DNA of 64,000 nt from Betaproteobacteria bacterium (GCA_947467435.1 CANIIA010000002.1:20882-84881); one strand, 5' to 3'; positions 10,196 through 38,676 are shown, numbered from the stretch's first letter. The notes: generated from the sequence alone by a model not told the origin. A program made the numbers and translations.

Positions 10196-10215
10196 GCGCT
10201 TCCAATCACAACAAT

Positions 10216-11502: not shown

Positions 11503-11731
11503 AACAAGAATCCGCTTGCCTCTGTAGACAACGTATTGCCGGGCGCGGATTGTCACACCTTTGCGCTGAATGGGGAACGTACCTTACGCGCCAGGCTTGT
11601 CCACAAGCTTGCGAGAAGCTGTCTAAATTCTGACGTTGCATCGCAACATGATCGAGCGTGTAGCGATCTGTTTGGTTGCGAGGTGCTTGGGGCTGGATTA
11701 GGATCCAACGCACTGTTCCTAGGAGGGTCCG

Positions 11732-12211
11732 ATGACCATCAACGTCTCTATGCAAGTCAATGGCAAAGCCGCCAGCGTGAATGTCGAAGAACGCACGTTA
11801 TTGGTGACCGTGCTGCGCGAAGAACTTCGTCTTACCGGCACGCACGTCGGCTGCGATACCGCCCAGTGCGGTGCATGCACCGTGCATATGAATGGCAAGG
11901 CCGTAAAGTCTTGCTCGATGCTCGCCATGCAAGCCGAGGGTGCGCAAATTTTGACCATCGAAGGTGTTGCCCATGCAGATGGCAGCCTGCATCCAATGCA
12001 GGCGGCGTTTAAAGAGCATCACGGTCTGCAATGCGGTTTTTGTACCCCCGGCATGGTGATGAATGCCATCGATTTAGTGCAAGGTCGACCTAACATCACC
12101 GAAGAAGAAATTCGTCACGGACTCGAAGGTAACTTGTGTCGCTGTACCGGCTATCACAACATTGTGAAGTCGATTGCAGCTGGTGCAAAAGCAATGGCAA
12201 GCGCGAAGTAA
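11732..12211 (+). CDS. coxS: [2Fe-2S] small subunit of a molybdenum hydroxylase (CoxS-like)
   Basis: 159 aa. Motifs [38 protein letters not shown] about 6 nt upstream. Confidence 0.93.
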
Positions 12212-12255
12212 CGCTCAAAAAAACACAACCAAAATAAACGGTTCAGGAGACGACA

Positions 12256-14622: not shown

Positions 14623-14688
14623 ACGGATACGCATTCAGCACACGCTTTTTTTATTCCACACGAAACAACGCAACACGGAGAAATCAAT

Positions 14689-15489
14689 ATGTACGCATTT
14701 ACTTACCACCGCCCCGCCAGTGCGGCCGATGCCGCAGCGCTCGCACTCAAACACACCGACGGAAAAATTCTTGCTGGAGGACAAAGTTTGGTGCAAGCCA
14801 TGAAACTGCGCCTCGCCTCCCCTAGCGACATTATTGATTTGGGCACCGCCAAAGACCTCGTCGGCATTTCACAAAAAGGCAATCAGATCACGATCGGCGC
14901 GATGACGCGTCACGCCGCAGTTGAGCAAAGTGCTGAAGTCAAACAACTGATTCCTGCATTAGCCGATCTCGCTGGGGGTATTGGCGATCGTCAAGTGCGT
15001 CATATGGGCACACTCGGTGGAGCGCTAGCAAACAACGACCCGGCCGCGTGTTATCCCGCCGCAGTACTTGGCTTAGGCGCAACCATCCAGACCAACAAGC
15101 GCACGATTGCCGCCGATGATTTCTTTAAAGGCTTGTACGAAACCGCACTTGAGTCTAGCGAGATCATCACCGCTGTCACCTTTCCCGCTGCCAAGCGCGC
15201 GGCCTACATCAAGTTTAAAAACCCCGCTTCACGGTTTGCGTTAGTTGGCGTGTTTGTTGCGCAAATGGACCAAGGGGTGCGCTTAGCCGTCACCGGTGCG
15301 GCCTCTTGTGTGTTTCGTGTGCCCGAGATGGAAAAAGCGCTGGGGGCTGCGTTTACGCCAGAGTCAATCGCCAAGATTCATGTGAGCGCCGACGACCTCA
15401 ACTCGGATCTACATGCCGCTGCAGATTACCGCGCCCATCTGATTACCGTGATGGCCAAGCGCGCAGTGAGCAAAGCGCTGGGTCAGTAA
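14689..15489 (+). CDS. coxM: FAD-binding medium subunit (CoxM-like)
   Basis: 266 aa. ILAGGQSLVQAMKLR FAD-binding motif. Completes the S-L-M gene order. Confidence 0.9.
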   Translation: MYAFTYHRPASAADAAALALKHTDGKILAGGQSLVQAMKLRLASPSDIIDLGTAKDLVGISQKGNQITIGAMTRHAAVEQSAEVKQLIPALADLAGGIGDRQVRHMGTLGGALANNDPAACYPAAVLGLGATIQTNKRTIAADDFFKGLYETALESSEIITAVTFPAAKRAAYIKFKNPASRFALVGVFVAQMDQGVRLAVTGAASCVFRVPEMEKALGAAFTPESIAKIHVSADDLNSDLHAAADYRAHLITVMAKRAVSKALGQ

Positions 15490-15502
15490 TTTTTCTGGCT
15501 TC

Positions 15503-15539
15503 AAAAAAAAACGCGCGTCAGGTTTGGCGCGCGTTTTTT
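15503..15539. terminator. Bidirectional intrinsic terminator between convergent coxM and acyl-CoA ligase genes
   Basis: A8-ACGCGCG-tcaggtttgg-CGCGCGT-T6. The GC stem is flanked by an A-tract on one side and a T-tract on the other. Confidence 0.7.
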
Positions 15540-15600
15540 ATTGCGTCAGCAACAACAAAGCAACAACTCCATCTGACGAGTTCAATCACAACAGCCTCAT

Positions 15601-17124
15601 CTACGGGGCAACAAAATTCGCTTTCAGTTGATACTTGAGCACCTTGCCAGAACTATTACGCGGCAAGGCATCCACAAACATCACGTACTTGGGTTTTTTG
15701 TAGCCAGCAATTCGGTTGCGACAGTGCTCGATCAAGGCCTCGGCTACGAGGTGCTCACCAGGGCGCAACTCAACCCACGCGGCAACCGCTTCACCGTACA
15801 TGGCATCTGGCACACCAGCGACTGCGGCATCTTGCACCGCTGGATGTTCAAGTAAGGCGGCCTCAACTTCTTTTGAATAGATGTTGTAGCCGCCGGATAA
15901 CACCATGTCTTTTTTGCGGTCGACAATGTACAAATAGCCCTCAGCATCCCGACGCGCTAAATCCCCAGTGGCAAACCAACCGTCGCGCAGTGCTTCAGCG
16001 GTTTCTTGTGGTCGATTAAAGTACCCACGCAGCGTCACAAAGCGCCCGGGTTCACCGCTACGCACTTGCAACTCGCCAATGGCGTCCTCTTCCGTGACCA
16101 GTTCGCCAGCTGCACTCATCAAACGCACTTCAATGCCGGCAATCGGTCGACCGATCGAGGTGGGACGTGTGAGTTGCTCTTCTGGCGGTAAGTTGGTCAA
16201 CGCGCCACACTCGGTCATCGCAAAGTACGAGTGAATGCCAATTTGCGGCAACGCTTGCATGATGCGCGCCTTCACTTCACGCGGAAACGCCTCGCCCGTG
16301 GCCACCAATAAACGCACTGTGGCAAACGCTTGTGGTTGCGCTTCGATCGCGGGTAGTAACAAGCGACCCACCGTCGGCACCATTCCCAGCACGGTAATAC
16401 CTTCAGTGGCACATAAGCGCGCCGCTTCGTTGGCATCAAAGCGCGGCAAGATCACCAATGGCGAACCAATACACAACATATTAATCACGCGACCAAACGC
16501 CGTCCGGTGCGTGAGCGGTGTGGTGATTAAGTGTTTGTCGTTGGCATTGATGCCCCATTCCAAGGCGTTGATGTAAGCGTTGGGTACAAAATAATTCGAT
16601 TGGGTCAGAATCGCGCCCTTGGGTCGACCGGTGGTGCCTGAGGTGTAGGCGATCATGCAGTCGTCTTGATGGACCGGTAAATCAAATCGCTGCGGGGCAT
16701 GCGCTTGCCATAACGCATCAAAATCTAATTCTTGCCCTTGTGTTTCACCTGCCACCAAGATCACCGGCACATCGTGCGTTGCGCGCTCTAACAACGACCG
16801 CGTCTCTGGATGGATAAACATCGCACGCGGTGCGCAATCGGCCAAAATAAAACTGGCTTCCGAAGGTGTGAGCCGCGTGCCAATCGGTACGGCGATCGCG
16901 CCCACCTTGATGATGGCAAGAAACGCCAACACATATTCCGCGCAGTTGGGTAACAGCACCGCGACGCGATCACCCACACCAACCCCACGTGCGTGTAGTG
17001 CTGCAGCGAGCTGATCACTGCGCGTATCGAGCGCGACAAACGATAAGCGCAACGCACCACAAATTAAGGCTTCACGCTCTGGCGTTGCGCGTGCGTGCGC
17101 CGCCAGAAATGCTGGCAGTTTCAT
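15601..17124 (-). CDS. AMP-dependent acyl-CoA synthetase/ligase
   Basis: 507 aa. Motifs YTSGTTGRPKGA, GWFATGDLARRDAEGYLYIVDRKKD, PRNSSGKVLK. Confidence 0.93.
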   Translation of the reverse strand: MKLPAFLAAHARATPEREALICGALRLSFVALDTRSDQLAAALHARGVGVGDRVAVLLPNCAEYVLAFLAIIKVGAIAVPIGTRLTPSEASFILADCAPRAMFIHPETRSLLERATHDVPVILVAGETQGQELDFDALWQAHAPQRFDLPVHQDDCMIAYTSGTTGRPKGAILTQSNYFVPNAYINALEWGINANDKHLITTPLTHRTAFGRVINMLCIGSPLVILPRFDANEAARLCATEGITVLGMVPTVGRLLLPAIEAQPQAFATVRLLVATGEAFPREVKARIMQALPQIGIHSYFAMTECGALTNLPPEEQLTRPTSIGRPIAGIEVRLMSAAGELVTEEDAIGELQVRSGEPGRFVTLRGYFNRPQETAEALRDGWFATGDLARRDAEGYLYIVDRKKDMVLSGGYNIYSKEVEAALLEHPAVQDAAVAGVPDAMYGEAVAAWVELRPGEHLVAEALIEHCRNRIAGYKKPKYVMFVDALPRNSSGKVLKYQLKANFVAP

Positions 17125-17163
17125 CGGTTATACCAAGACAGTCAGTGAATGAGTGGGAGTGTC

Positions 17164-17601
17164 TTACGCTGGCTCAAAACCAGGCAGATCGTATTCTTCG
17201 GAAAGTTTTTCAAAGCACACTTTCACCGGCATACCGATCTTCACGTCTTCGTTTTTCACGTGATGCAAGTTCACCAACATACGCACGCCCTCTTCTAGCT
17301 CGACCAAGGCGCACAAATACGGCACGCGATCTTCATGACCTGGCCAAGCGCTGTAGGTGTTGGTAAAGCTATACACCGTGCCGCGCCCAGACACTTCACG
17401 CCACTCTAAATTGCGTCGACCATTCACCATGCTCACTGGACGCGGAAAAAACTGCGCGCGACCACTGTCTTTGCAATATTGAACGACGAGTTTTCCTTGA
17501 TGGGCCGCATCCCAAAACGGACGTGTGTCCATGTACACCCCTGGTTTTGGTAGGGGACGTGGAATTTTTTTTGGTTCAGGTTTTTTTGCAACGTCGCTCA
17601 T
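17164..17601 (-). CDS. DUF35 OB-fold protein (acyl-CoA-associated), Zn-ribbon apparently degenerate
   Basis: 145 aa. Core FWDAAHQGKLVVQYCKDSGRAQFFPRPVS...GTVYSFT typical of DUF35. Only one Cys where a four-Cys ribbon is usual. ATGA-type overlap with the upstream thiolase-fold gene. Confidence 0.8.
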   Translation of the reverse strand: MSDVAKKPEPKKIPRPLPKPGVYMDTRPFWDAAHQGKLVVQYCKDSGRAQFFPRPVSMVNGRRNLEWREVSGRGTVYSFTNTYSAWPGHEDRVPYLCALVELEEGVRMLVNLHHVKNEDVKIGMPVKVCFEKLSEEYDLPGFEPA

Positions 17602-18770
17602 GATTGCTCCAGGATCAGCACGTTAGATACACCCCAGTTACGGCCGTAGGGAATGACCCCAATCCCCGTCACCATACAATTGCGCGGGTCGCTGACTTGA
17701 CGGGCACCGGCACCGCCCAACATTTGGCGTACCCCTTCGACCAAATTCAAACCACCCCCCGCCAAGCCAGGTTGGCCAGCAGAAATTTGTCCGCCCGACG
17801 TGTTTAACGGCAGCGTGCCTTTGTAGGTGAAGTCGGTGTTCATCACAAACTCACAGCCTTTACCTTTCGGACAAAAACCAATGTCTTCCAGCGTAATCAC
17901 CAACGCGATCAGAAAATCATCGTAGGGCATGATCATGCGTACATCTTTGGCGGCCATACCGGCTTGCTTTAAGGCACGTGGACCGGCCACAGAAAATCCG
18001 GAGACGGTCATATCGGCCAGCGGATCAGCACCCTTAAAGTTAGTGATCTCGCCATAACCGACCGGATGACACATGCGCTTGGCGCCGTATTTTTTGGCTT
18101 TTTCCGTCGATGTCACTAACACGGCGTTCGCACCATCGCACACCATCACCGAATCCAACATACGTAGTGGCTCAGACACATATTTCGAGCTGAGATACTC
18201 TTCTTCAGTGAGTGGCTTTTGTAATTTGTCGCAGGCGTTGGGGTTCATCAACGCATGATTGCGCTGGGTGATTGCAAGTTTTGCCAGCGCACGATCATCT
18301 AAGCCGTATTGATGACGGTAGCGTTGCGAGAGCAAACCAAACGCACCCACCGGTCCACGTAAGCCTTGTGGGTACTGAAATTCATGACGCTGGCCGCCTT
18401 GCTCAGTCGGTCGCGATGACGATTGCGCATCTGAGGCCAGCACTAACACGGTCTCGCATAGGCCATCACGAATCGCTGCTGCTGCGCGCGCAATACCTCC
18501 AATACCAGAGGCACCGCCCAAGCCATTGAGTTGCATCCAGGTGGGCGAAATGCCAAGCATCTCGCACATGTAAACCCCCCAAAATGGATTGGCAGTTTCG
18601 CTCATGGTTTCAGCGATGGATATGCCATCGATGTCTTTGGGCTCAAGGCCGGTTTGCACCAAGACTTGTTCAAATACTTCGCCAGCCAAATCATAAGAAC
18701 TACGTCCACCCTTTAAGGTGACCTTGGTTTCGCCGTAACCAATGACGGCGATATCTTTACGCGTACTCAT
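17598..18770 (-). CDS. SCP2/Ltp-type thiolase-fold protein lacking the thiolase catalytic Cys and His (possible Ltp2-like aldol-lyase)
   Basis: ORF 17598..18887. Preferred start at 18770 (MSTRKDIAVIGYGETK). Thiolase-fold blocks are present. The nucleophile position reads LNGLGGASG and the GHP position reads SAGQPG (by-eye alignment to SCP2-thiolase motifs NNNCATG / KGHPLGATG). Confidence 0.75.
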   Translation of the reverse strand: MSTRKDIAVIGYGETKVTLKGGRSSYDLAGEVFEQVLVQTGLEPKDIDGISIAETMSETANPFWGVYMCEMLGISPTWMQLNGLGGASGIGGIARAAAAIRDGLCETVLVLASDAQSSSRPTEQGGQRHEFQYPQGLRGPVGAFGLLSQRYRHQYGLDDRALAKLAITQRNHALMNPNACDKLQKPLTEEEYLSSKYVSEPLRMLDSVMVCDGANAVLVTSTEKAKKYGAKRMCHPVGYGEITNFKGADPLADMTVSGFSVAGPRALKQAGMAAKDVRMIMPYDDFLIALVITLEDIGFCPKGKGCEFVMNTDFTYKGTLPLNTSGGQISAGQPGLAGGGLNLVEGVRQMLGGAGARQVSDPRNCMVTGIGVIPYGRNWGVSNVLILEQS

Positions 18771-19010
18771 CGCGCACCACCTTGATTGACGCGCAGCAAA
18801 GTATGTCGCGCTTGTTGGTGTGTTTGCAGCTTCATCTGTGTTCTCCGTGTCTAAATCGTGCAGCGTGATCGCCACCGTTCGCGCCAACGCGCATTGCAGA
18901 CCCCATCGTAAGGCGTTTCCCCGCTGCGATGCAGCGCGTCTGTGAAACTACGCGATACGCGTTCACAATCACCACCGAGCGCGGGCGTGTTGCGAAACGC
19001 AAACCATGCC

Positions 19011-19039
19011 TTGACGCATGCAAATCAGCCGCCTAGTCT
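19011..19039 (+). promoter_or_regulatory. Weak sigma70-like promoter candidate for the ligase/thioesterase/Mo-enzyme operon
   Basis: TTGACG (19011-19016), 17-nt spacer, TAGTCT (19034-19039). The -10 matches only 3/6. A TTGCGAAACGCAA palindrome lies just upstream at 18990-19002. Confidence 0.2.
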
Positions 19040-19072
19040 CGACTGCTATTGCTTGGCGTCTCCAAGGACTGC

Positions 19073-20644
19073 ATGCTCACTCTGCCCACCCTGTTGCGGC
19101 GCACCGCACGCTTGCATGGCAAGCATATCGCCATCCGCGATCCCGAAGGGGATCTGTCGTGGCAGGCCTATCATGCGCGTATCGTGCGCGCTGCAGGCAT
19201 GCTCCGTCATTCTTTGGGGCTTCAGCCTGGTGCGCGCATCGGCATTTTGGCGCGCAATAGTGTGCGACAAGCCGAACTCATCTATGCCGCTTATTGGGCA
19301 GGTGTCGTGCCTGTGCCCGTGAACTTTCGCTTAGCCCCCCCTGAGATTGCCGATTTGCTCGCCGACGCTGAATGTGCGGCGCTCGCCATTGAATCGACGT
19401 TTTTATCGCTCTTCGATCACCACGCACTCACCCAATGGCGTGATCGCGCCATGTTACTTGGGGCAACCAGCACCGCAGCGCAACCCATCGGACTGGGCGC
19501 GTATGACACGCTGCGTGATGCGGCTCCGCCCATCGATGCACACGAACCCGATGAGCATGATGATGCGATTTTGCTATACACCGGCGGTACTACCGGTCGC
19601 GGTAAGGGCGTGCGCATCACGCATCGCAATGTCGTGGCCAATGCAATGCAATTGGCGCATATCATGAATATCGCTGCGCAAGATAGTTACTTGCATGTCT
19701 CACCGATGTTTCATTCCACCGATTTAAAAGCCACTTGTCTCACGCTACATGGTGGCAGCCATGTTTATCTGCCTGAGTTCACACCGGCCGGCGTACTAGA
19801 GGCCATTGCACATTACGGCATCACGATTGGTAGTTTGGTGCCGACCATGATCATTCGTTTGCTACAAGACCCCGCGTTTGGCAAACACGATATCTCTACC
19901 TTACGCGTGATTAGCTACGGCACCTCTCCGATGGCCGCCGAATGGATTCGTCGTACCATAAACGCGTTTCCGAACGTGGCCATGCAACAAGTGTATGGGC
20001 TCACCGAAACTTCACCCGTACTTGCGATTTTGGATGAACACGATCACGCGCGTGCCTTGGCCGGAGAAGAGCACATCTTGCGTGCGGGCGGCCGGCCCGT
20101 GGCGGGCACCGATGTTCGCATCGTCGATGAGAACGGTCATGAAGTGCCGCCTGAAGAAAGTGGCGAAATTTTGGTGCGCGGCCCGCAAGTAGCGAATGGC
20201 TATCACAACCGTCCGCGCGAAACCGCCGAGGTGTTTCGTGATGGCTGGTTACGCACCGGCGATGTCGGGCGGCTCGATGCCGAAGGGTATTTGTACGTAC
20301 TCGATCGCAAAAAAGACATGGTCATCACCGGCGGTGAAAACGTCTACACCTCAGAAGTCGAAGCGGTGTTGTATCAACATCCCGGAGTGCATGAAGTGGC
20401 GGTGATTGGTGTGCCCGATGAACGTTTTGGTGAAGCCCTTTGCGCAGTGATTGTGCCCGCCCCAGGTCACACTTTCAGTGCTGAAGATATTATTCAGCAC
20501 TGTCGTGGGCGTATTGGTGGTTACAAGATTCCACGCCAAGTACGATTCGTCGACGCGTTACCAAAAAGCGCCATGGGAAAAACCCTCAAACAAACGCTAC
20601 GGCAAGAAGCTGTGGCCATGCAATCCGGGTCCCGTACGCCTTAG
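19073..20644 (+). CDS. AMP-dependent acyl-CoA synthetase/ligase
   Basis: ORF from 19049. The ATG at 19073 is preceded by AAGGA at 5-nt spacing. Motifs YTGGTTGRGKGV, GWLRTGDVGRLDAEGYLYVLDRKKD, PKSAMGKTLK. Confidence 0.92.
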   Translation: MLTLPTLLRRTARLHGKHIAIRDPEGDLSWQAYHARIVRAAGMLRHSLGLQPGARIGILARNSVRQAELIYAAYWAGVVPVPVNFRLAPPEIADLLADAECAALAIESTFLSLFDHHALTQWRDRAMLLGATSTAAQPIGLGAYDTLRDAAPPIDAHEPDEHDDAILLYTGGTTGRGKGVRITHRNVVANAMQLAHIMNIAAQDSYLHVSPMFHSTDLKATCLTLHGGSHVYLPEFTPAGVLEAIAHYGITIGSLVPTMIIRLLQDPAFGKHDISTLRVISYGTSPMAAEWIRRTINAFPNVAMQQVYGLTETSPVLAILDEHDHARALAGEEHILRAGGRPVAGTDVRIVDENGHEVPPEESGEILVRGPQVANGYHNRPRETAEVFRDGWLRTGDVGRLDAEGYLYVLDRKKDMVITGGENVYTSEVEAVLYQHPGVHEVAVIGVPDERFGEALCAVIVPAPGHTFSAEDIIQHCRGRIGGYKIPRQVRFVDALPKSAMGKTLKQTLRQEAVAMQSGSRTP

Positions 20645-20698
20645 TACGTCACCGCAGGAGTGCAGCGTTGATTTTTTATTTTTTTTAGGAGACATCGT

Positions 20699-21112
20699 AT
20701 GAAACCCGGATTCACTGTTGGCATGAAAAAAACCGCACGCATCACGGTCGATACTGATCGCACCATCGGCTTTATGGGTGATGCGCTACGCGTATACGCC
20801 ACGCCGATGATGGTGCGCGATGTCGAAATTACCTGCAAAGATTTTCTCGGAGAATTTCTGAGTGCCGAAGAAAACTCTGTGGGCGCGCGCGTCGAAATCG
20901 ATCATCTCGGTCCAACGCTGCGCGATATGTGGGTCGACATCACAGCAACAGTCACCGCCATCGAGGGTCGACGGGTGAATTTTGAAGTCGAAGTACGTGA
21001 TGCGCTCGATACCGTCGGTAAGGTGAAGCACACGCGCTTTATTGTGGAGCTTGCCAAACAAAAAGAGCGCCTCGAAGCCAAGGCCGCCAAGTTAGCTGCG
21101 CTCGGTCATTAA
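20699..21112 (+). CDS. Hotdog-fold thioesterase superfamily protein (FlK-like)
   Basis: 137 aa. Pattern TVD...ATPMMVRDVE...VGARVEIDHLGPT...GRRVNFEVEVRD typical of small acyl-CoA thioesterases. Confidence 0.7.
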   Translation: MKPGFTVGMKKTARITVDTDRTIGFMGDALRVYATPMMVRDVEITCKDFLGEFLSAEENSVGARVEIDHLGPTLRDMWVDITATVTAIEGRRVNFEVEVRDALDTVGKVKHTRFIVELAKQKERLEAKAAKLAALGH

Positions 21113-21205
21113 GAAGACGCACAACGCACGCATTAAGTAACACACCGCATTGCCGGACGTACAGCACGCCATTCAACCTCACTGATCACGGTCCATACAC
21201 CACCC

Positions 21206-23959
21206 ATGTCAACGACAATTCCTGTTCAACCCGTCACCAGCACGGGCGAGTCCAAGATGGTGCCGCTGTATTGCAATCAGTGCGTGTGCGGCCCTGATTT
21301 ATTTAAAGTCGAGGTGCGCGATGGTGTGGCGTTGCGCATGACCCCGAATCACGACCTCGAGGGTATTCATCCAGCCGGTGGTCGCGTATGCGTCAAAGCC
21401 TATGGCTTGGTACAAAAAACCTACAACCCCAATCGCCTGACGCAACCACTGAAACGCACCAACCCTAAAAAAGGTAAAGAACACGATCCCGGCTTTGTAC
21501 CGATTTCGTGGGATGAAGCACTCGACTTGGTGGCAGAAAAATTAAACGCTATTCGCGCCAAGGGCCTGCGAGATGAAGAAGGTTACCCACGCGTAGCAGC
21601 GACCTTTGGTGGTGGCGGCACGCCAACGCGTTACATGGGAACGTTTCCAGCATTTTTGTCCGCGTGGGGCGTTCTGGATCAAGGCTATGGTTCGGGTCAA
21701 GGAGCCAAGTGCTTTCACTCTGAACATTTATATGGTGAGTTTTGGCACCGCGCCTTCACGGTGGTTGTCGATTCACTGAATTGCGATTACGTGATTAACT
21801 TTGGCAGCAATCACGAAGCTTCCGGTGGCGTATCGGGGGTATGGCGACAAGCCGATGCGCGCTCACGCGGCTTAAAACGTGTGCAGGTTGAGCCGCATTT
21901 GTCGGTGACGGGCGCATTGTCCGGTGAATGGGTACCGATCAAACCAAAAACAGATGCTGCATTTTTGTATGGCTTGATTCATCGCATTTTGCTCGAGCGC
22001 GATTGGCAGGCTGTGTGTGATGTGCGTTTTTTAAAAGAAGACACCAATTCGCCGTATTTGGTTGGACCACACGGCTATTTCATGCGCGACACAGTCTCAG
22101 GCAAGCCACTCATTTGGGACACCGCCGCGCAATGCGCCAAGCCCTATGACGCCTCGATTAGCGATGCCGCACTGACGGGTAGCTATTGTGTCAGTGGCGA
22201 AGAACACGGACCCGATGGCGAACGCTGGCAACACACCGAGATCCAAGCGCAACCGTCCTTCGAACGGTTGCGCGAACACATGCGTAAATACACGCCGGAG
22301 TGGGCCGCAGCAGAGTGTGATGTGCCGGTAGAAACCATTCGTCGTGTTGCCGACGAATTTGTCGCGCATGCGCGTGTTGGTGCCACGATTGAAATCGACG
22401 GACAAACCTTACCGCATCGGCCCGTGGGCGTAATGCTAGGTAAAGGCGTGAACAACGGCTGGGGTGGTTATCAAGCGATGTGGGGTCGCACTTTACTCGC
22501 GAGCTTGGTGGGTGCACTCGAAGTGCCAGGTGGCACGATGGGAACCAAAGTGCGCTTGAATCGTCCTGCAGACAATCGACTAAAGAGCGCAACGCATGGC
22601 GAAGACGGATTCATGCACTACCCGTTCAATTCGACATTGAAAGCCGATTGGCAATCCAAGCCGCACATTCGCAATGCCTACAAAATGCTGGTGCCATTGG
22701 CGGCCAATTCGCCTTGGTCGGCCGCCCTGGGCCCCGCCCATTTACCTTGGCTGTTTCAACACAAAGCCCCCGCCCCTTGGCCGCGCCAAACATTGCCTGA
22801 GATGTGGATTTGTTATCGCACCAATCCAGCGATTTCATCTTGGAATGCACCCGAAGTTGCAAAACGAATCGCCGAATTTCCGTTCATGCTGGCCTTTGGT
22901 TATACCCTCGATGAATCCAACTGGATGGCGGATGTGATTTTGCCTGAGGCCAGTGATTTAGAAAGCTGGCAACTCTCACGCATCGGTGGCACCGGGTCGG
23001 CTGAACAGTTCTGGCATCACCAAGGTTGGGCGTTACGACAACCAGCGGTTGCACCCGCCGGTGATTGCAAAGACATGAGCGATATCGCGACTGAACTCGC
23101 GAAACGAACCGGTCTATTACGTGAATATAACGAAGCCATCAATCGCGGTTCTGCGGCGATGGCCTTACGTGGCAAGGACTACGACTACGCGCTCGATCCA
23201 GACATTGCCCACGATTCAAAATCGATTTGGAATGCTGTCGCGAAGGCCGCGAGTCATGAAGTGTCTGCGGGCGCAGACGTTAAAGATCTGGATTGGTTTA
23301 GCGAACACGGATTCATGATTCGTCCGTTTTCGCAACTCGAGTGGTATTTATATCCGCGCATGAAAAGCACCGGTTTACGTTTTGAACTGCCGTATCAAGA
23401 GCGCATTCAACGACATGGCGCACAACTCGAGCGGCGCCTACACGAAGTTGGGATCCAATGGTGGGATCCTCAATTAAAAGAATATGAAGCGCTGCCTGAA
23501 TACTTACGTTTTCCCGATATCTGGGAACACTACGCGACCGAATTAGGACGCGATCCTGCCGAGTTTCCGTTGTGGGCGCTCACCGCACGCAGCATGCAAT
23601 ACGCTTGGGGCGCGAACGTGGGTTTACCTTTGATTCGAGAAGTCGCGCAAAACGTCGCCGGTCACGATGGAGTGATCATTAATCGCGCTACCGCCAAACG
23701 CTTAGGCATTGCGGATGGCGATCCGATTGTTCTTGAATCAGCCAGCGGCACCACCCGGGGTCGCGCCACGCTACGCGAAGGTATTCGTCCCGACACGGTC
23801 TTATTGATTGGACAATTTGATCACTGGGCCACGCCAGTGGCTAAAGATTTTGGTGTCGCCAGTCTCAATTCTCTTACTGATCTTGCGGTCTCTCTCACCG
23901 ATGCAACCGGGAGTGGCGCAGACATCATGCGCGTCAGCGTGAAAAAGGCACCCCGATGA
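21206..23959 (+). CDS. Molybdopterin oxidoreductase large subunit (DMSO reductase family), no signal peptide
   Basis: 917 aa. N-terminal Cys group YCNQCVCGPD...GRVCVKAY (CxxCxC...C, atypical spacing). Molybdopterin-binding blocks. No RRxFLK twin-arginine motif in the first 40 aa. Confidence 0.85.
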   Translation: MSTTIPVQPVTSTGESKMVPLYCNQCVCGPDLFKVEVRDGVALRMTPNHDLEGIHPAGGRVCVKAYGLVQKTYNPNRLTQPLKRTNPKKGKEHDPGFVPISWDEALDLVAEKLNAIRAKGLRDEEGYPRVAATFGGGGTPTRYMGTFPAFLSAWGVLDQGYGSGQGAKCFHSEHLYGEFWHRAFTVVVDSLNCDYVINFGSNHEASGGVSGVWRQADARSRGLKRVQVEPHLSVTGALSGEWVPIKPKTDAAFLYGLIHRILLERDWQAVCDVRFLKEDTNSPYLVGPHGYFMRDTVSGKPLIWDTAAQCAKPYDASISDAALTGSYCVSGEEHGPDGERWQHTEIQAQPSFERLREHMRKYTPEWAAAECDVPVETIRRVADEFVAHARVGATIEIDGQTLPHRPVGVMLGKGVNNGWGGYQAMWGRTLLASLVGALEVPGGTMGTKVRLNRPADNRLKSATHGEDGFMHYPFNSTLKADWQSKPHIRNAYKMLVPLAANSPWSAALGPAHLPWLFQHKAPAPWPRQTLPEMWICYRTNPAISSWNAPEVAKRIAEFPFMLAFGYTLDESNWMADVILPEASDLESWQLSRIGGTGSAEQFWHHQGWALRQPAVAPAGDCKDMSDIATELAKRTGLLREYNEAINRGSAAMALRGKDYDYALDPDIAHDSKSIWNAVAKAASHEVSAGADVKDLDWFSEHGFMIRPFSQLEWYLYPRMKSTGLRFELPYQERIQRHGAQLERRLHEVGIQWWDPQLKEYEALPEYLRFPDIWEHYATELGRDPAEFPLWALTARSMQYAWGANVGLPLIREVAQNVAGHDGVIINRATAKRLGIADGDPIVLESASGTTRGRATLREGIRPDTVLLIGQFDHWATPVAKDFGVASLNSLTDLAVSLTDATGSGADIMRVSVKKAPR

Positions 23960-25554
23960 AACGTTACGGCATGATTGTGGACCTCAACCGCTGCGTCGGT
24001 TGTCAGACCTGCACCATTGCGTGCAAACACAGCAACGACACGCCCCCGGGTGTGCAATGGCGTCGCGTGCTTGATGTCGAGCAAGGACAGTATCCCGATG
24101 TCGAACGGCTGTTTTTAGTCACCGGCTGTCAACATTGCGCCGAACCCTCTTGTGTACCGGTGTGCCCCACGGGTGCGACACGTCAGCGAGAAGATGGCTT
24201 GGTGACCATGAACTACGATTTATGTATTGGCTGCGCTTCGTGTGCGGTGGCATGTCCATATCAAGCACGTACCATCGTGCACGAACAACACGGCTACTAC
24301 GCAGACACCCTCACCAAGCAAGAAGAAAAAACAGCGCATACCGATCGATTGGGTGTGGCCAACAAATGTACCTTTTGTATCGAGCGTATCGATACCGCGC
24401 ATACACAGGGCTTAACGCCGGGCGTTGACCCCGACGTCACACCGGCCTGTGCAGTGTCATGCATCACGCAGGCGATTCGCTTTGGCGATTTTGCCGATCC
24501 CAACAGCACCGTGTCGCAGTTGGCGCGTGATGAACGTTCGTTTCAAATGCATGCCGAACTGGGGAATGATCCGCAGATTAAATATCTGTATGAAGTTCCA
24601 CAAGCCACACCAGGGCGCGGCCCAGACGCCATCGATGTGAGTGATGAACGTTTGTCTGATCCCGCCAATCCACTGGTTGGACAGCGTCAAACATTTTGGG
24701 ACTACCGTGCCGCAATGAATTTTATTTTGGGCGGTATGGCCGCAGGTCTCATGCTGTGCGCGTGGTGGGCCGCGCAATTACAACTGATTGAAGTGCAAGC
24801 GCATCGCCAAATCAATCTTGCTGCAGCGGCAGTCATGGCGATTGGATTGTTTTTTGTGTTTCTAAAAATCGGTCGTAAGTTGCGTTTTCTGTTTGTGTTA
24901 CTGCGTCCGCAAAGCTCATGGATGACGCGCGAAACCTGGTGCGTGGCTGCACTGTATCCTGCCATCGCCATCAGCTTTGTGTGGCCACAAGCCGTTTGGA
25001 TGCATTGCATCGCGCTCGCCGCGGCTGGTTTTTTGTATTGCCAAGGACGCATCTTGCAAGCGAGCAAGGGCATTCCCGCTTGGCGCGTTGCGCGTATGCC
25101 GATGATGTTGATCTGCACCGGCATAGCAGAAGGCATCGGTTTACTTGCACTCTTGACGGCCCAATACACAACACAAAACACGCTGCCAATGTATCTTTGC
25201 ATCGCGGGGGCGTTATTCGCGCTACTCAACGCGGTATTCTGGTGGCAGTATGTACGTCAAGCACGGGCAAACGGCATCGGTCCACTAGCCCGCGCAGATT
25301 TGATCAAGGCCACCCCAATCGTGCACGGACTCGCCCATTTAGCCCCGCTAGGTTTATACGCCCTCGCCTTAGCTAAACCTGAAACGATGCACGCGCTCAC
25401 TGCGATCGCAGGACTCTGTGCAGTCGCTGGTGGTGCATGGTGGAAATTCGTCGTCATCACCCGGGCTTGTCACCAACAAGGCTTTGCCTTGCCGATGGTG
25501 CCGCAGCGCGGTTCGGGTCAGCGTGCCGCTCCAGCGCGCTACGCGCTAAATTAA
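23956..25554 (+). CDS. Fusion protein: four-cluster [4Fe-4S] ferredoxin (DmsB-like) plus polytopic membrane anchor (DmsC/NrfD-like)
   Basis: 532 aa. N-terminal half has CVGCQTCTIAC, CQHCAEPSCVPVCP, CIGCASCAVACP, CTFC...CAVSC. The C-terminal ~290 aa has about 8 hydrophobic helices (FILGGMAAGLMLCAWW...). ATGA overlap with the Mo subunit. Confidence 0.85.
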   Translation: MKRYGMIVDLNRCVGCQTCTIACKHSNDTPPGVQWRRVLDVEQGQYPDVERLFLVTGCQHCAEPSCVPVCPTGATRQREDGLVTMNYDLCIGCASCAVACPYQARTIVHEQHGYYADTLTKQEEKTAHTDRLGVANKCTFCIERIDTAHTQGLTPGVDPDVTPACAVSCITQAIRFGDFADPNSTVSQLARDERSFQMHAELGNDPQIKYLYEVPQATPGRGPDAIDVSDERLSDPANPLVGQRQTFWDYRAAMNFILGGMAAGLMLCAWWAAQLQLIEVQAHRQINLAAAAVMAIGLFFVFLKIGRKLRFLFVLLRPQSSWMTRETWCVAALYPAIAISFVWPQAVWMHCIALAAAGFLYCQGRILQASKGIPAWRVARMPMMLICTGIAEGIGLLALLTAQYTTQNTLPMYLCIAGALFALLNAVFWWQYVRQARANGIGPLARADLIKATPIVHGLAHLAPLGLYALALAKPETMHALTAIAGLCAVAGGAWWKFVVITRACHQQGFALPMVPQRGSGQRAAPARYALN

Positions 25555-25691: not shown

Positions 25692-26696
25692 TTGCATCAC
25701 ACCCCTCGTCGTTACTACAAAAAGCTATCCCAAATTTTTGTATGGCTTGTATTGGGCGCCCAGTTACTCATGGCCCATGCTTTTGCACAATCGGAAAACT
25801 GGCCAACACGCCCACTCAAACTGATCGTGCCTTACGCAGCCGGCGGATCCACCGATATCGTGGGACGAACCTTTGCGCAAAAAATGACCGAAGCCACTGG
25901 ACACAGCATTGTGGTTGAAAATCGCGGGGGGGCTGCAGGCAGTGTGGCGACGGCGTTATACGCAAAATCAGCTATGGATGACCATACCTTTTTAATGGTC
26001 ACCGTCGGACAACTCTCGATCAACCAGTGGATTTATAAATCGCTCGGCTACGATCCAGAAGCCGACTTACAGCCTGTTGGCCTGGTTGGACAAGTAGCAA
26101 ACGTGATGGTGGTCAACCCCAGCGCCCCTTGGAAAACCGCGCGCGAGTTGTTTGATTATGGTCGTGCCAACCCAGAAAAACTCAATTTTGCGAGCGCCGG
26201 CATTGGCTCTACCGGACACTTACTCAACGAACTGATTGCCACGCGCTTAGGCATGAAGCTGGTGCACATTCCGTACAAAGGTAATGGCCCTGCCATGCAA
26301 GCGTTACTCGCCAATGAGGTGCAGTTCAACACCGAAAACATGCCGCAATTGTTACCGCAAATTCGTGCGGGCGCGTTGCGTCCGCTGGCAGTCTCCTCGG
26401 AGAAACGCTGGTTTCAGTTGCCCGATGTACCCACCTTTGCTGAATTGGGTTATCCAGAGATCACCACCATGGTGTGGTTTGGTGTGGTGGCGCATGCAAA
26501 AATGCCCAAGCCCATCATCAACAAATTAAATCGTGAGATGGTGCAAGTCATCAAACGACCCGATGTCACCGCGCGCTTTCGTGAGCTGAGTATGGAAAAC
26601 ATCACGAGCACTCCAGAAGAAATGCTGGCGCTAGCGCGACGTGAACGCACACGCTGGCAAAAAATCGCCATTGATTCGGGTGCGCGCGCAGATTAA
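25692..26696 (+). CDS. Bug/TctC-family periplasmic solute-binding protein (orphan; no tctA/tctB nearby)
   Basis: 334 aa. TTG start 6 nt after AAGGAG. Signal peptide IFVWLVLGAQLLMAHAFA. Motifs VPYAAGGSTDIVGR, NRGGAAG, ASAGIGSTGHL. Confidence 0.9.
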   Translation: MHHTPRRYYKKLSQIFVWLVLGAQLLMAHAFAQSENWPTRPLKLIVPYAAGGSTDIVGRTFAQKMTEATGHSIVVENRGGAAGSVATALYAKSAMDDHTFLMVTVGQLSINQWIYKSLGYDPEADLQPVGLVGQVANVMVVNPSAPWKTARELFDYGRANPEKLNFASAGIGSTGHLLNELIATRLGMKLVHIPYKGNGPAMQALLANEVQFNTENMPQLLPQIRAGALRPLAVSSEKRWFQLPDVPTFAELGYPEITTMVWFGVVAHAKMPKPIINKLNREMVQVIKRPDVTARFRELSMENITSTPEEMLALARRERTRWQKIAIDSGARAD

Positions 26697-26787: not shown

Positions 26788-27813
26788 TTACGTTTTTGCT
26801 TTACGTTGAAGTGTCGCGGCAGCGATGCGCGTGGATGGCGATTTGCGACCGTTGCGATCGTAAGCCCGCGCTTGCAAGGTCACAAACTGCGAAATCAGTA
26901 CATCGCGCAACCAGCGATTGCCTGGATCGTTATGCACACTACGATGCCAATGCATATTGACTTGAAACGTGGGCGGAACAAAGGGTAACGGCACCTGACA
27001 CAACCCACGCTGCGTGGTGATGAAATCTGCCAACGCTTGCGGCACGATCGCCACCACGTCGGTACTCGCCACAATGACTGGCACGCTCATAAAGTGCGGG
27101 GTATGTAACACCACACGCCGCTGGATGCGGTGGCTACGAAAAAATTTTTCGAGCACTTCTTGGCTACGGCCAGAGGCTTCAATGACCACATGACCCAGTC
27201 CAGCAAACTGCGCCAGACTCATCCGTTTGCCCGCGAGCGGATGGTCACTGCGCATGATGCAAGCAAATGAATGTAAACCCACCCGCCGGTGCAAATATTC
27301 CCCGGTACGAATATCCGGGAAATAACCTACCGCAAGATCCACTTCTCCTGCATCCATGGCTTGCGCCAATGCCTGCGGTGAAAGCGTCACCGATCGCACC
27401 CGTGCGCCTGGTGCCTCTTGCGCCACGCGTTGCAACACCAAGGGTAAATAAATCCCCTCGCCAATATCTGAAAGCGCTAAACGAAATTCACGCTGCGTAT
27501 TCGTCGGATTAAATTCGGGCGGGGTAAAAAGCTGCGCTTGCACTGTGTCTAAGATGGAGCGAATAGGTTCAATCAACGCGCGCGCACGCGTGGTGGGCTC
27601 CATGCCACGCGCAGTTTTGATAAACAGCGGATCATCCAATAGCGTCCGTAAGCGCGCCAACGCAGTACTTAGCCCAGGCTGACTCATTGCAAGTTGTTGT
27701 GCAGCGCGCACCACACCACGCGTTTCAAACACGGCAATAAATACGCGCAGCAACGCCAAATCCAGATGGCGCAAACGGGTGTCGCTGTGCGATACGACGG
27801 ATCGTCGCTTCAT
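26788..27813 (-). CDS. LysR-family transcriptional regulator
   Basis: 341 aa. N-terminal HTH LRVFIAVFETRGVVRAAQQLAMSQPGLSTALARLR. Divergent from the Rieske oxygenase genes. Confidence 0.92.
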   Translation of the reverse strand: MKRRSVVSHSDTRLRHLDLALLRVFIAVFETRGVVRAAQQLAMSQPGLSTALARLRTLLDDPLFIKTARGMEPTTRARALIEPIRSILDTVQAQLFTPPEFNPTNTQREFRLALSDIGEGIYLPLVLQRVAQEAPGARVRSVTLSPQALAQAMDAGEVDLAVGYFPDIRTGEYLHRRVGLHSFACIMRSDHPLAGKRMSLAQFAGLGHVVIEASGRSQEVLEKFFRSHRIQRRVVLHTPHFMSVPVIVASTDVVAIVPQALADFITTQRGLCQVPLPFVPPTFQVNMHWHRSVHNDPGNRWLRDVLISQFVTLQARAYDRNGRKSPSTRIAAATLQRKAKT

Positions 27814-27853: not shown

Positions 27854-27922
27854 ATTGTCAGATATATGTTCGGGCCGTACGATACGGGCTACATCGTCTC
27901 ACCTACGTACGGAGTCACTCAG

Positions 27923-29212
27923 ATGTCTGCCACCCCTTCTGCGAGCACCGCGCACAGCACCGGTCCTGTTTCGGCCCCGTTATCGGCGCCCCTCGATTGG
28001 CCTGCCGAAGGCGTAGCGCGTGTGCCATTTCGGGTGTTCTCCGACCCAGAGATTTACGCCCAAGAACAAGAACGGATCTTCCGCGGGCCAATCTGGAATT
28101 TTGTGTGCATGGAAGCCGACGTCGCGCAACCCGGCGATATCCGCACGGCTTGGGTCGGTGAAACGCCCGTGGTGGTGACGCGTGATCATGATCAAAAGCT
28201 TCACGTCATGATCAATCGTTGCGCGCACAAAGGCGCGCTCGTGTGCTTAAAACAGCGCGACAAACAAGACTCCCTCACCTGCGTGTATCACGCGTGGAAC
28301 TATGGGCTAGATGGACAACTCAAAACCGTTGCTTTCCGACATGGCCTGAAGGGCAAAGGCGGCATGCCCGAGGATTTTGATTCGACCAAACACCGCTTGC
28401 AGCCGCTACGCGTAGCGACTTTTTGCGGCTTGGTGTTTGCAACGTTTTCTGATCAAACCGAACCCTTGGATCAATATTTGGGCGCACCGATGTCGAAGTT
28501 TCTGGAGCGTAATTTAGGCCGTCCGCTCAAGATCCTGGGTGTACACAGCCAGATGATTCACAACAATTGGAAGCTGTACGCCGAAAACGTGCGTGACTCC
28601 TATCACGCGACGCTGCTACACACCTTCTACACGACGTTTAAAGTCAATCGTCTCGATATGGATGGCGGCATTATTCTGTCGGACAAAAAATGGCATCACA
28701 TCAGTTATGCCAAACGCGCCACGCTGGACCAAGCGGGTGAATATAAAAATGCCAATGTGCACTCAGCCAAATTTGAATCGAATTTGGCGGGCCCCGAGTT
28801 GCTCAAAGCGTGGGACGAATTTGAAGACGGCATCACCCATAGCATTCAAACCGTGTTTCCCACCTTGGTGGTGCACTTCACGCTGAACTCTCTAGCGGTA
28901 CGCTATTTTGTGCCGCGTGGCGTTGATAAAACAGAATTGTTTTGGGTATTTCTGGGCTATGAACGTGACGATGCCGCACAAGAAAAAATGCGCGTGATGC
29001 AAGGCAACCTCACTGGTGCTGCCGGCCTTGTGTCCTTGGAAGATGGCTGTATCAACGAGTTCGTACAACGCGGCTCAACCACCAGCCCCGACAAACGGGC
29101 ATTTATTGAAATGGGTGGAAAAGTGGCCGAATCGAATGAATCTTCACGCGCCACCGAGGCCTCTGTTCGTGGCTTTTGGCACGGCTACCGCAACATTATG
29201 GGATTCAATTAA
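27923..29212 (+). CDS. Rieske non-heme iron aromatic ring-hydroxylating oxygenase, alpha subunit
   Basis: ORF from 27866. The ATG at 27923 is preceded by GGAG. Rieske motif CAHKGALVC...CVYHAWNY. Mononuclear iron motif NVRDSYHATLLH. Confidence 0.92.
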   Translation: MSATPSASTAHSTGPVSAPLSAPLDWPAEGVARVPFRVFSDPEIYAQEQERIFRGPIWNFVCMEADVAQPGDIRTAWVGETPVVVTRDHDQKLHVMINRCAHKGALVCLKQRDKQDSLTCVYHAWNYGLDGQLKTVAFRHGLKGKGGMPEDFDSTKHRLQPLRVATFCGLVFATFSDQTEPLDQYLGAPMSKFLERNLGRPLKILGVHSQMIHNNWKLYAENVRDSYHATLLHTFYTTFKVNRLDMDGGIILSDKKWHHISYAKRATLDQAGEYKNANVHSAKFESNLAGPELLKAWDEFEDGITHSIQTVFPTLVVHFTLNSLAVRYFVPRGVDKTELFWVFLGYERDDAAQEKMRVMQGNLTGAAGLVSLEDGCINEFVQRGSTTSPDKRAFIEMGGKVAESNESSRATEASVRGFWHGYRNIMGFN

Positions 29213-29219
29213 ACGCACC

Positions 29220-29729
29220 ATGTCTACACCGTCCGTCACTGCACACGCCACCCACGCGGTGGATGCAAACACACACCACCGCATCAGCACGTTGTTCACG
29301 CAGTATGCACACTGCCTCGATGATGATCGCACCGATGATTGGCCGGGGTTTTTTACCGCCGATGGGCTGTATCAAATCACGACGCGCGAAAACGAGGCCG
29401 CTGGCTACCCGATTGGGCTCATGCGATGTGAAGGTCGCGGCATGATGGAAGACCGAATGCTGGCACTCAAAATTGCCAACATCTACGAACCCCAACACGC
29501 TTGCCACTTGCTGGGGCCTGCAGAAATTCATCCACACACCGATGGTAGTTATCACGCACGCTCAAATTTCAGCGTGTTTCGTACCATGCAAAGCGGTGAT
29601 GCGAGCTTGTTTGCCACCGGCAAATATCTCGATCACGTGGTCAACGAAAACGGCCAGCTGCGCTTTCAATCACGCCGCGTGATTATCGACTCACGCTGCA
29701 TCGATGTGTTGTTGGTTTTGCCGCTTTAA
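29220..29729 (+). CDS. Ring-hydroxylating oxygenase beta subunit (SnoaL/NTF2-like)
   Basis: 169 aa from the ATG at 29220, 8 nt after the alpha stop. Pattern LFTQYAHCLDDDRTDDWPGFFTADGLYQI...RFQSRRVIIDS typical of small subunits. Confidence 0.85.
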   Translation: MSTPSVTAHATHAVDANTHHRISTLFTQYAHCLDDDRTDDWPGFFTADGLYQITTRENEAAGYPIGLMRCEGRGMMEDRMLALKIANIYEPQHACHLLGPAEIHPHTDGSYHARSNFSVFRTMQSGDASLFATGKYLDHVVNENGQLRFQSRRVIIDSRCIDVLLVLPL

Positions 29730-36187: not shown

Positions 36188-36684
36188 TTCGCACCGCCAG
36201 TTGCGCGTAATTTTTCTGCCGCCAGTTTCACAGCAGCAACAATCTGTACGTAACCCGTGCAACGACATAAGTTGCCGCCGATGGCGTCACGAATATCCGC
36301 TTCAGTTGGATTGAGATTGGTTTGTAACAAGGCATGCGCAGAAATCAACATACCGGGTGTGCAATATCCGCATTGCATGCCGTGGGTTTCACAAAACGCG
36401 TCTTGTAAAACACCTGGCGTGCCATCGGGCTGACTCAGGCCTTCCACCGTTGTGATGGCACAGGCATCGGCTTGCACGGCGTACATCAAACACGAACGCA
36501 CGGGTTCACCATCAAGCATCACCGAGCAGGCGCCACAAATACCGTGTTCGCAACCGACGTGCGTGCCGGTTAAACCGAGTGTGTCGCGTAAAAAATCAAC
36601 CAATGACGTGCGCGCAGGCACCGCAGCGCTACGCGGCTGACCATTCACCATCAAAGTGACGACATGTAATTTTTCAGCACTCAT
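36184..36684 (-). CDS. [2Fe-2S] small subunit of the second Mo hydroxylase
   Basis: 166 aa. Motifs [30 protein letters not shown]. Confidence 0.92.
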   Translation of the reverse strand: MSAEKLHVVTLMVNGQPRSAAVPARTSLVDFLRDTLGLTGTHVGCEHGICGACSVMLDGEPVRSCLMYAVQADACAITTVEGLSQPDGTPGVLQDAFCETHGMQCGYCTPGMLISAHALLQTNLNPTEADIRDAIGGNLCRCTGYVQIVAAVKLAAEKLRATGGAK

Positions 36685-37562: not shown

Positions 37563-37633
37563 GATGCCTGTGATCACGCCGCCATGGGCGATGCAATGGG
37601 CGCTGTTTTGCAGCAATTTCACTGTTCGATATG

Positions 37634-37657
37634 GGTGCGCGATGCGGCACGCGCACC
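37634..37657. promoter_or_regulatory. Perfect 8-bp inverted repeat GGTGCGCG-N8-CGCGCACC in the divergent hydroxylase / coxD promoter region
   Basis: Read directly. About 72 nt from the FAD-subunit start and about 90 nt from the coxD-like start. Confidence 0.3.
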
Positions 37658-37747
37658 AAACACCCCGCATTTGCAAGACGCAACTAGCGTCCCCCCCGTA
37701 AATGACTGAAAATGGCGGTCCTTTTTTTGTCGCCGACCCCCGCCACT

Positions 37748-38668: not shown

Positions 38669-38676
38669 GCGACGCC

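Follow-up and report, generated by a model that had tools for sequence, protein, structure and literature searches.

A 64,000-nucleotide stretch of DNA from a Betaproteobacteria bacterium (GCA_947467435.1, CANIIA010000002.1:20882-84881; hereafter the window, with positions counted from its first letter) carries four co-directional genes at 19073-25554, for a coenzyme A (CoA) ligase, a hotdog thioesterase, a molybdenum (Mo) enzyme and an iron-sulphur (FeS) protein with a membrane anchor. Judged by its sequence, this operon is a relative of PadABCD, the phenylacetyl-CoA:acceptor oxidoreductase system, with a CoA ligase attached. We consider it probable that the operon is a self-contained module for the alpha-oxidation of a carboxylate, homologous to PadABCD. 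By phylogeny and gene content it falls in a group, here called clade I, that is a distinct, well-supported sister clade of canonical Pad, with PadC and PadD fused, a FadD-type ligase of its own and no PadEFGHI; this sister group had been missed in a first-pass annotation of the window.

The first-pass annotation had proposed a ligase, a thioesterase, a 917-residue Mo enzyme and an FeS/anchor protein in a row, and open reading frames (ORFs) and domain matches confirmed all four genes (Table 1). The longest ORF of the ligase opens at a TTG (19049); the ATG at 19073, which is preceded by an AAGGA motif, is the likelier start. The start of the fusion gene overlaps the stop of the Mo gene by 4 bases, and the gene order is kept in dozens of unrelated contigs, a conservation far beyond chance. 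In a promoter and terminator scan, promoter-like sites were fewer than expected from shuffled sequence, and terminator-like sites did not exceed the number expected from it.

The operon had also been compared with the logic of PadBCD. This analogy is a homology, because the window proteins match the Pad proteins of a canonical cluster and the padA position of Aromatoleum aromaticum EbN1. The canonical reference was the pad cluster of locus L071 (a Rhodocyclaceae metagenome-assembled genome, MAG), validated by the NCBIfam equivalogs PadF, PadG, PadH and PadI (scores of 155, 760, 629 and 836 against cut-offs of 150, 700, 475 and 700, respectively). Its genes encode, in order, a BzdR-type regulator, an FlK-like protein, the Mo subunit, a 215-residue four-cluster ferredoxin, a DmsC-like anchor, PadF/G/H/I and an IorA-like protein, which is the canonical pad cluster known from Thauera, Azoarcus and Aromatoleum (PMC5109826, PMC4453571); the pathway leads from phenylacetyl-CoA via phenylglyoxylyl-CoA to phenylglyoxylate (PMC9765128, PMC5109826). 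The window Mo subunit is 59% identical to L071 PadB over 903 residues, and residues 1-211 and 245-528 of the fusion are 56% identical to L071 PadC and 32% identical to L071 PadD, respectively. Close relatives of the Mo subunit are named 'phenylacetyl-CoA:acceptor oxidoreductase' by the Joint Genome Institute (JGI), and automated KEGG Orthology (KO) annotation already calls these proteins PadB. The suggestion that the route is of an undescribed kind was not upheld, since the steps from ligase to thioesterase would repeat the upper Pad pathway, the thioesterase being the counterpart of padA. The kind of system and the PadB label were thus already known, and what is new is the sister clade with its fused anchor and dedicated ligase.

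A neighbour-joining tree was built from 68 full-length Mo subunits, with two sequences about 29% identical to them as the root. In the plasmid collection no relative exceeded 28% identity, and these matches served only as outgroups. The tree placed the window Mo subunit with the PadB family, which is monophyletic with respect to the outgroups. Within the family two reciprocally monophyletic clades were found: clade I (22 sequences including the window), recovered in 30 of 30 bootstraps, and clade II (46 sequences), to which the two PadEFGHI-bearing loci, L071 and L069, belong. On average, sequences share 71-72% identity with members of their own clade and 59% with those of the other. The alignment of both clades has 288 invariant columns out of 917, lacks indels specific to either clade and shows just four fixed differences, which argues that the two clades probably share the same core chemistry.

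More than 596 relatives were found in species-representative genomes, the best 80 of them all in Beta- or Alphaproteobacteria MAGs, and the best 120 of 3884 protein matches are 67-89% identical to the window protein and about 912 residues long. The best 80 genome loci and two lists of the best 120 proteins come entirely from MAGs or metagenomes (lakes, soil, marine); no cultured isolate was present among the top matches of clade I or II, including those of a search seeded with L071 PadB, and an exact-match look-up with the window protein gave no hit. Literature searches on EC 1.17.5.1 and K18361 revealed no aerobic or fused variants. To our knowledge, few enzymes besides PadBCD can oxidise a CoA-activated acid at its alpha-carbon without O2, and we know of biochemical studies of it only in Thauera.

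Gene context was counted by tblastn in the 10-kb flanks of MAG contigs for 26 clade I and 55 clade II loci; these counts are lower bounds, some loci being incomplete. The FeS protein and anchor are fused in 21/26 clade I loci and in 2/55 clade II loci. Orthologues of the window ligase (50-79% identity, counted from a threshold of 45%) lie directly 5' of the thioesterase gene in 14 of the 26 clade I loci and in none of the 55 clade II loci, and PadG/I-like genes of more than 50% identity were found at 0/26 and 2/55 loci, respectively. A large subunit of the xanthine oxidase (XO) family is encoded within 10 kb in 10 clade I and 20 clade II loci, the subfamilies differing. Clade I recurrently adjoins XO-family enzymes and IorAB, and often oxygen-dependent enzymes.

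Compared with PadBCD and padA (EC 1.17.5.1; Thauera aromatica, Azoarcus evansii, Aromatoleum aromaticum), the window has homologous Mo, FeS and anchor modules, and it shares with the PadBCD family the absence of a twin-arginine translocation (Tat) signal, three invariant N-terminal cysteines with a GPD motif, and an invariant putative Mo-loop cysteine. It differs in the fusion of PadC and PadD, in a FadD-type ligase within the operon instead of the PaaK-type PadJ, in its separate sister clade, in the lack of a PadEFGHI phenylglyoxylate dehydrogenase, in an extra cysteine (C28), and in having oxygenases and CoxL-type enzymes as neighbours.

The Mo subunit matches Pfam PF00384 (66 bits) and PF01568 (39 bits), and no twin-arginine motif is present at its N-terminus. 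Between an in-frame stop (21134-21136) and the start ATG (21206) the sequence offers neither ATG nor GTG nor TTG, so a cryptic Tat signal at an upstream start, the objection that the first-pass annotation had raised against its own claim of a signal-less enzyme, is excluded. The atypical N-terminal cysteine group it had described is present (C23-x2-C26-x-C28...C62). Four cysteines, C23, C26, C62 and C169, are invariant throughout the family (68 relatives); C28 is replaced by alanine in 53 of 68 and occurs in the window's subclade only. Throughout the family this FeS site is unusual, reading C-x2-C-V-A/C-G-P-D...C, with three invariant cysteines and an invariant Gly-Pro-Asp, whose aspartate (Asp31) is possibly the fourth ligand of the cluster. 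C169 lies inside the invariant motif GQGxKCxHSEHLYGEfWHRaF, in a loop that aligns with the Mo-ligand cysteine of ArrA and PsrA, although the residue-level alignment is uncertain and the loop is modelled at low confidence by AlphaFold2 (AF2); C169 is likely to be a Mo ligand.

The AF2 model of the Mo subunit (predicted local distance difference test, pLDDT, 71.7; predicted template-modelling score, pTM, 0.78) matches ArrA, PcrA, EbdA and Nap at probability 1.00. ArrA is the best sequence match in the PDB (E = 1.5e-34) and the nearest solved structure (6cz7, 20% identity, template-modelling (TM) score ~0.6); no family member has a solved structure, this best PDB match being 20% identical. The enzyme might accordingly be read as a reductase of the Psr/Phs/Arr/Ttr kind, or as a hydroxylase resembling ethylbenzene dehydrogenase (EBDH) or transhydroxylase and acting on a free, non-CoA substrate, because its nearest structures and NCBIfam models are ArrA, PhsA and PsrA, and EbdA and PcrA are among its fold matches. 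We regard this as very improbable. The NCBIfam scores are far under the cut-offs (PhsA, 164 against 694; ArrA, 134 against 1600; EbdA, 41.5 against 2000), identity to solved structures is at most 20%, there is no Tat signal, the FeS domain is predicted to be cytoplasmic and the operon has no gene for a haem-b gamma subunit; the enzyme is also 59% identical to PadB of the canonical cluster, and a thioesterase gene is tightly conserved beside the Mo gene. A type II hydroxylase like EBDH (EbdA, S25dA) was rejected, the EbdA cut-off and that of the type II alpha model (103 against 985) being failed and both the Tat signal and the gamma gene being absent. A Psr/Phs/Arr respiratory reductase was rejected on the failed PhsA and ArrA cut-offs, the 20% identity to 6cz7 and the lack of a Tat signal. 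Pyrogallol transhydroxylase was absent from the sequence-based PDB matches of the Mo subunit, and the alternatives listed in the first-pass annotation (ethylbenzene dehydrogenase, steroid C25 dehydrogenase and transhydroxylase) consequently found no support. ArrAB and PsrABC share with the window enzyme the Mo-bis(pyranopterin guanine dinucleotide) (Mo-bisPGD) fold, a four-cluster FeS partner and the probable cysteine ligand of Mo, and PsrC is an NrfD-type eight-helix anchor like that of the window fusion. They are only about 20% identical to it, exported by Tat, periplasmic and active on inorganic substrates, whereas the window complex would face the cytoplasm and stands in a CoA-ester context.

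The fusion protein consists of a PadC-like ferredoxin with four [4Fe-4S] clusters (residues ~1-211; 16 cysteines in four CxxCxxC...C groups) and a PadD-like quinone anchor of the NrfD/DmsC type with eight helices (~245-532), eight hydrophobic segments being found between residues 252 and 501. It opens directly at the first CxxCxxCxxxC motif, with no export signal, and no Tat or general secretory (Sec) signal was found on any subunit. Lysine and arginine residues number 17 in the loops on the FeS side and the C-terminal tail, and 2 on the opposite side; the positive-inside rule predicts a cytoplasmic FeS domain and, with it, a cytoplasmic Mo subunit. These two results bear out the earlier description of a membrane-anchored Mo enzyme facing the cytoplasm. 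For the PadBCD family as a whole, a cytoplasmic orientation would follow from the absent Tat signal, topology having been computed only for the window fusion.

The hotdog protein matches the FlK family (PF22636) with 102 bits against a cut-off of 27, and is 46% identical to the product of the gene 5' of padB in L071. Aligned to FlK (3kv7), its T35, E43 and H69 correspond to FlK T42, E50 and H76, which we take to be the catalytic Thr/Glu/His of FlK, and the equivalent residues are invariant in 65 of 65 homologues adjoining PadB-like genes. An FlK-like gene lies directly 5' of the padB-like gene in 63 of the 81 loci (clade I, 21/26; clade II, 42/55). FlK of Streptomyces cattleya has the hotdog family PF22636 and the Thr/Glu/His in common with the window protein; overall similarity is low (E ~1e-11), and the window protein, unlike FlK, has a Mo-enzyme partner and, presumably, a 2-oxoacyl-CoA substrate. 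In A. aromaticum EbN1, padA lies directly 5' of padB, is co-induced with padBCD and is annotated 'phenylacetyl-CoA dehydrogenase, accessory protein' (PMC9765128, Table S1). By analogy of gene position, EbN1 padA would belong to the FlK family.

The same table names padK the 'predicted thioesterase', and the FlK-like protein could be a maturation or accessory factor, hydrolysis being left to the Mo enzyme itself or to another protein. In keeping with such a role, the Pfam-scanned ORFs of the window, several small ORFs lying outside the scan, include no gene for a chaperone of the TorD/NarJ type. We find this distinctly unlikely, given the strong Pfam match to FlK and the invariance of the FlK catalytic residues in all homologues. 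As an FlK-family 2-oxoacyl-CoA thioesterase, padA would gain a testable assignment.

The ligase scores 478.6 against a cut-off of 476 with NCBIfam PRK06187, and its best solved relatives are 8weu (deposited as a fatty-acyl-CoA synthase) and 8wev (deposited as a feruloyl-CoA synthetase). In the alpha-oxidation module as we infer it, with the chemistry taken by analogy from the Thauera enzyme, the ligase would convert R-CH2-COOH, R being most likely aryl or heteroaryl, into its CoA thioester. At the cytoplasmic face of the membrane, the PadB-like Mo-bisPGD subunit would then carry out a four-electron oxidation that turns the alpha-methylene into a 2-oxo group, with oxygen from water. The electrons would travel over five FeS clusters, the N-terminal one and the four [4Fe-4S] clusters in the PadC domain, and reach a quinone site of the PadD-type anchor. 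Finally, the PadA/FlK-like thioesterase would split the 2-oxoacyl-CoA into the free 2-oxo acid (an arylglyoxylate) and CoA. The Thauera enzyme, in the 1999 work of Rhee and Fuchs, is said to be quinone-linked, to take its oxygen from water and to form phenylglyoxylyl-CoA as a free intermediate; reportedly it was also stable to oxygen and co-purified with a hydrolase activity.

The best guess for the substrate is an arylacetyl-CoA. The neighbours of clade I give hints in this direction. First, IorA/IorB genes lie directly 3' of the fused anchor in L008, L009/L084, L011, L025 and the P0087 contig; IorA/IorB is an enzyme of the arylpyruvate:ferredoxin oxidoreductase type, which yields arylacetyl-CoA. 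Second, the P0087 contig also carries genes for a PaaK-type ligase and an XO-family enzyme downstream. Third, a gene for a StyA-like monooxygenase lies a few genes upstream of the module in L089, where an aldehyde dehydrogenase gene lies just downstream.

The same family and the same alpha-oxidation may instead serve a substrate other than a phenylacetate-type arylacetyl-CoA, candidates being aliphatic, alicyclic, phenylpropanoid-derived or heteroaryl-acetyl CoA esters (indoleacetyl-CoA, 2-aminophenylacetyl-CoA). The position of clade I as a sister to canonical PadB, its dedicated ligase of the FadD/feruloyl-CoA-synthetase type, found in clade I only, its varied contexts and the window's own neighbours (an AndAc/AndAd-like Rieske oxygenase, an Amidohydro_2 protein and a TcuA-like flavoprotein) are consistent with such a substrate. 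The IorAB genes 3' of the operon in five clade I loci, the PaaK-type ligase in one of them and the mere four fixed residue differences between the clades make it somewhat unlikely.

Several points weigh against alpha-oxidation of an arylacetyl-CoA by a PadABCD-like module. The window enzyme lies in the sister clade, outside the canonical PadB clade, at about 59% identity between the two. Every clade I member seen is from a MAG or metagenome. No PadEFGHI, IorAB, PaaK-type ligase or thiamine pyrophosphate (TPP) decarboxylase was found in the 64-kb window, which leaves the fate of the 2-oxo acid product unexplained. The built-in ligase is of the FadD/feruloyl-CoA-synthetase type, unlike the PaaK type that serves phenylacetate, and in EbN1 the predicted thioesterase is padK, not padA (PMC9765128, Table S1). 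Finally, clade I neighbourhoods are heterogeneous, with UbiD decarboxylase genes in L085 and a cytochrome P450 gene in L081, and with Mo genes that are orphans in L088 and L012.

Some of these loci deserve description in their own right. In L084, a 73%-identical clade I locus, a gene for a TPP enzyme of the PRK08199 type (6198-7871; 727 bits against 539) is divergent to the operon, which is followed by IorA/IorB and a TRAP transporter (14471-17975); the TPP enzyme and IorAB are candidates for arylglyoxylate decarboxylation and arylpyruvate supply, respectively. In L085 (6481-16851; 75% identity), two UbiD-family decarboxylase genes flank the operon of ligase, FlK-like, Mo and fusion genes; the fusion gene and the UbiD gene 3' of it are separated by an ornithine-cyclodeaminase-family gene, and that UbiD gene is followed by a TctAB transporter gene. 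The PadB-like gene of L012 (8490-22025, a Rhodospirillaceae MAG; 72% identity) has no adjoining FlK-like or FeS/anchor gene and is directly followed by genes for XO-family large and FAD subunits, a ligase and a trio of thiolase-like, DUF35 and ligase proteins, a layout that raises the possibility of a different electron-transfer partner. L088 (10001-12742) holds an orphan PadB-like gene, 75% identical to that of the window, with no thioesterase, ligase or anchor gene and flanked by PALP, aldehyde dehydrogenase, Fe-ADH, PhyH and HMGL-like genes.

In Burkholderiales loci of clade II such as L079 (labelled Ramlibacter tataouinensis), an FlK-like gene precedes padB and an XO-family enzyme is a neighbour, as in the window. 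In many such loci, the genes next after PadD encode a ligase of the PaaK type (609 bits) and a true 4-hydroxybenzoyl-CoA reductase, whose alpha subunit reaches 1176 bits (cut-off, 995); this is the known logic of anaerobic 4-hydroxyphenylacetate degradation; the ligase of the window is not of that type, and its XO-family enzyme resembles CoxL and glyceraldehyde dehydrogenase. The L079 cluster (9555-21601) and similar ones in L032-L077 (MAGs labelled Ramlibacter, Rubrivivax and Rhodoferax) comprise FlK-like, PadB, PadC and PadD genes, the ligase, the reductase and a benzoate-CoA-ligase-like gene. This 4-hydroxyphenylacetate module of the anaerobic type lies in genera usually regarded as aerobes.

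In the window, the operon is part of a catabolic island (11.7-40.5 kb), and housekeeping genes lie beyond 40 kb. The island also holds a LysR regulator, CoxG, an Amidohydro_2 protein, a TcuA-like flavoprotein and a second Bug receptor. With oxygenases and CoxL-type enzymes as neighbours, the host looks like an aerobic betaproteobacterium. The large subunit of the XO-family enzyme listed in Table 1 scores 674 bits with CO_dehy_Mo_lg and 665 with glyceraldDH_alpha, both under the cut-offs; it was rejected as a 4-hydroxybenzoyl-CoA reductase (373 bits against a cut-off of 995), and the enzyme is a possible partner of the Pad-like operon. A second XO-family enzyme is encoded on the minus strand in the 33794-40514 region (FAD subunit, 36681-37676; 2Fe-2S subunit, 36184-36684; Mo subunit, 33794-36268), and is followed within that region by CoxD-like AAA, CoxE-like VWA and CoxG genes on the plus strand. 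A two-subunit Rieske oxygenase resembling AndAc/AndAd (27866-29729) has a divergent LysR regulator (26788-27813); with 433 bits against a cut-off of 750 it is not an anthranilate dioxygenase orthologue, and the pair is conserved beside the Pad-like operon in L002, L004, L006, L007 and L017. The Bug receptor that the first-pass annotation had placed after the operon is present; in the nearest relatives (L002, L006, L007 and L017) a TctC gene also lies 3' of the operon, but at only 34-36% identity, and the receptor is a possible uptake component of the system.

Table 1. Positions of the operon, its N-terminal FeS site and neighbouring features in the window
Feature	Position	Strand	Basis
FadD-type acyl-CoA ligase ('lig1')	19073-20644	+	Pfam AMP-binding + AMP-binding_C
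FlK-family hotdog thioesterase, padA position, 137 aa	20699-21112	+	Pfam PF22636
PadB-like Mo-bisPGD catalytic subunit, 917 aa	21206-23959	+	Pfam Molybdopterin + Molydop_binding
N-terminal FeS site residues of the Mo subunit	C23-D31, 21272-21298; C62, 21389-21391		
PadC-PadD-like fusion, 532 aa	23956-25554	+	Pfam Fer4_11 + related domains, NrfD
TctC/Bug periplasmic carboxylate receptor	25692-26696	+	Pfam TctC, 208.6 bits
Thiolase-fold protein without nucleophile Cys	17598-18887	-	Pfam, PDB matches
DUF35/ChsH2-OB protein	17164-17601	-	Pfam
Second FadD-type ligase	15601-17124	-	Pfam
XO-family enzyme (2Fe-2S, Mo, FAD subunits), CoxL/glyceraldehyde-dehydrogenase type	11732-15489	+	Pfam, NCBIfam

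Divergent to the Pad-like operon lies the trio of thiolase-fold, DUF35 and second ligase genes. The best PDB matches of the thiolase-fold protein are 9myr, 4u4e, Ltp2 (6ok1) and BbsB (7pxp), and it has GGASG where thiolases have C(A/G)SG, that is, glycine in place of the nucleophile cysteine. The SCP-x-type fold and the DUF35 partner are present; the second of the tyrosines that we take to be catalytic in Ltp2 appears not to be conserved in the alignment. 'Ltp2-like lyase', as the protein had been called, is a fair label in view of its SCP-x/Ltp2/BbsB-type relatives and the GGASG motif. The trio was found within 10 kb in 4/26 clade I loci (L002, L017, L021 and L012) and in 0/55 clade II loci. 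Since L002, L017 and L021 are 87-99% relatives of the window, and only L012, which is alphaproteobacterial, has an independent arrangement, these amount to about two independent observations, and the association of the two operons is suggestive but weak.

The first-pass annotation had joined the trio, the Mo operon and the Bug receptor into one new oxygen-independent pathway and had proposed co-occurrence as a check. The trio is indeed divergent and adjacent in the window, as in L002, L017 and L021, with another arrangement in L012, and its thiolase-fold protein lacks the nucleophile cysteine like the aldolase Ltp2. Such a joint pathway is nevertheless unlikely: 22 of the 26 clade I loci and all 55 of clade II lack the trio, leaving about two independent observations, no chemical link is evident from a 2-oxo acid to a step of the retro-aldol or thiolase type, and a CoA-dependent lyase step would be costly once the thioesterase has released CoA.

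For the family, clade I is well separated, has its own ligase and a fused electron-transfer/anchor subunit, and is abundant in lake, soil and marine metagenomes, near oxygenase genes; this spread and these neighbours suggest that the chemistry extends beyond denitrifying degraders of aromatics. An enzyme of clade I, made of just two polypeptides (catalytic subunit and fusion), is also a simpler target for expression and structural studies. We regard it as possible rather than likely that clade I is an oxygen-independent, quinone-linked alpha-oxidation module of aerobic, largely uncultured Alpha- and Betaproteobacteria, in which arylacetates or related acids would be converted to 2-oxo acids and passed to oxygen-tolerant lower routes that replace the oxygen-sensitive PadEFGHI. 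Candidate enzymes for these lower routes beside clade I loci are TPP decarboxylases, CoxL-type or NAD-dependent aldehyde dehydrogenases, UbiD decarboxylases and Ltp2-like lyases. If this is true, oxic habitats would hold an alternative to the Paa epoxide pathway that has so far escaped notice.

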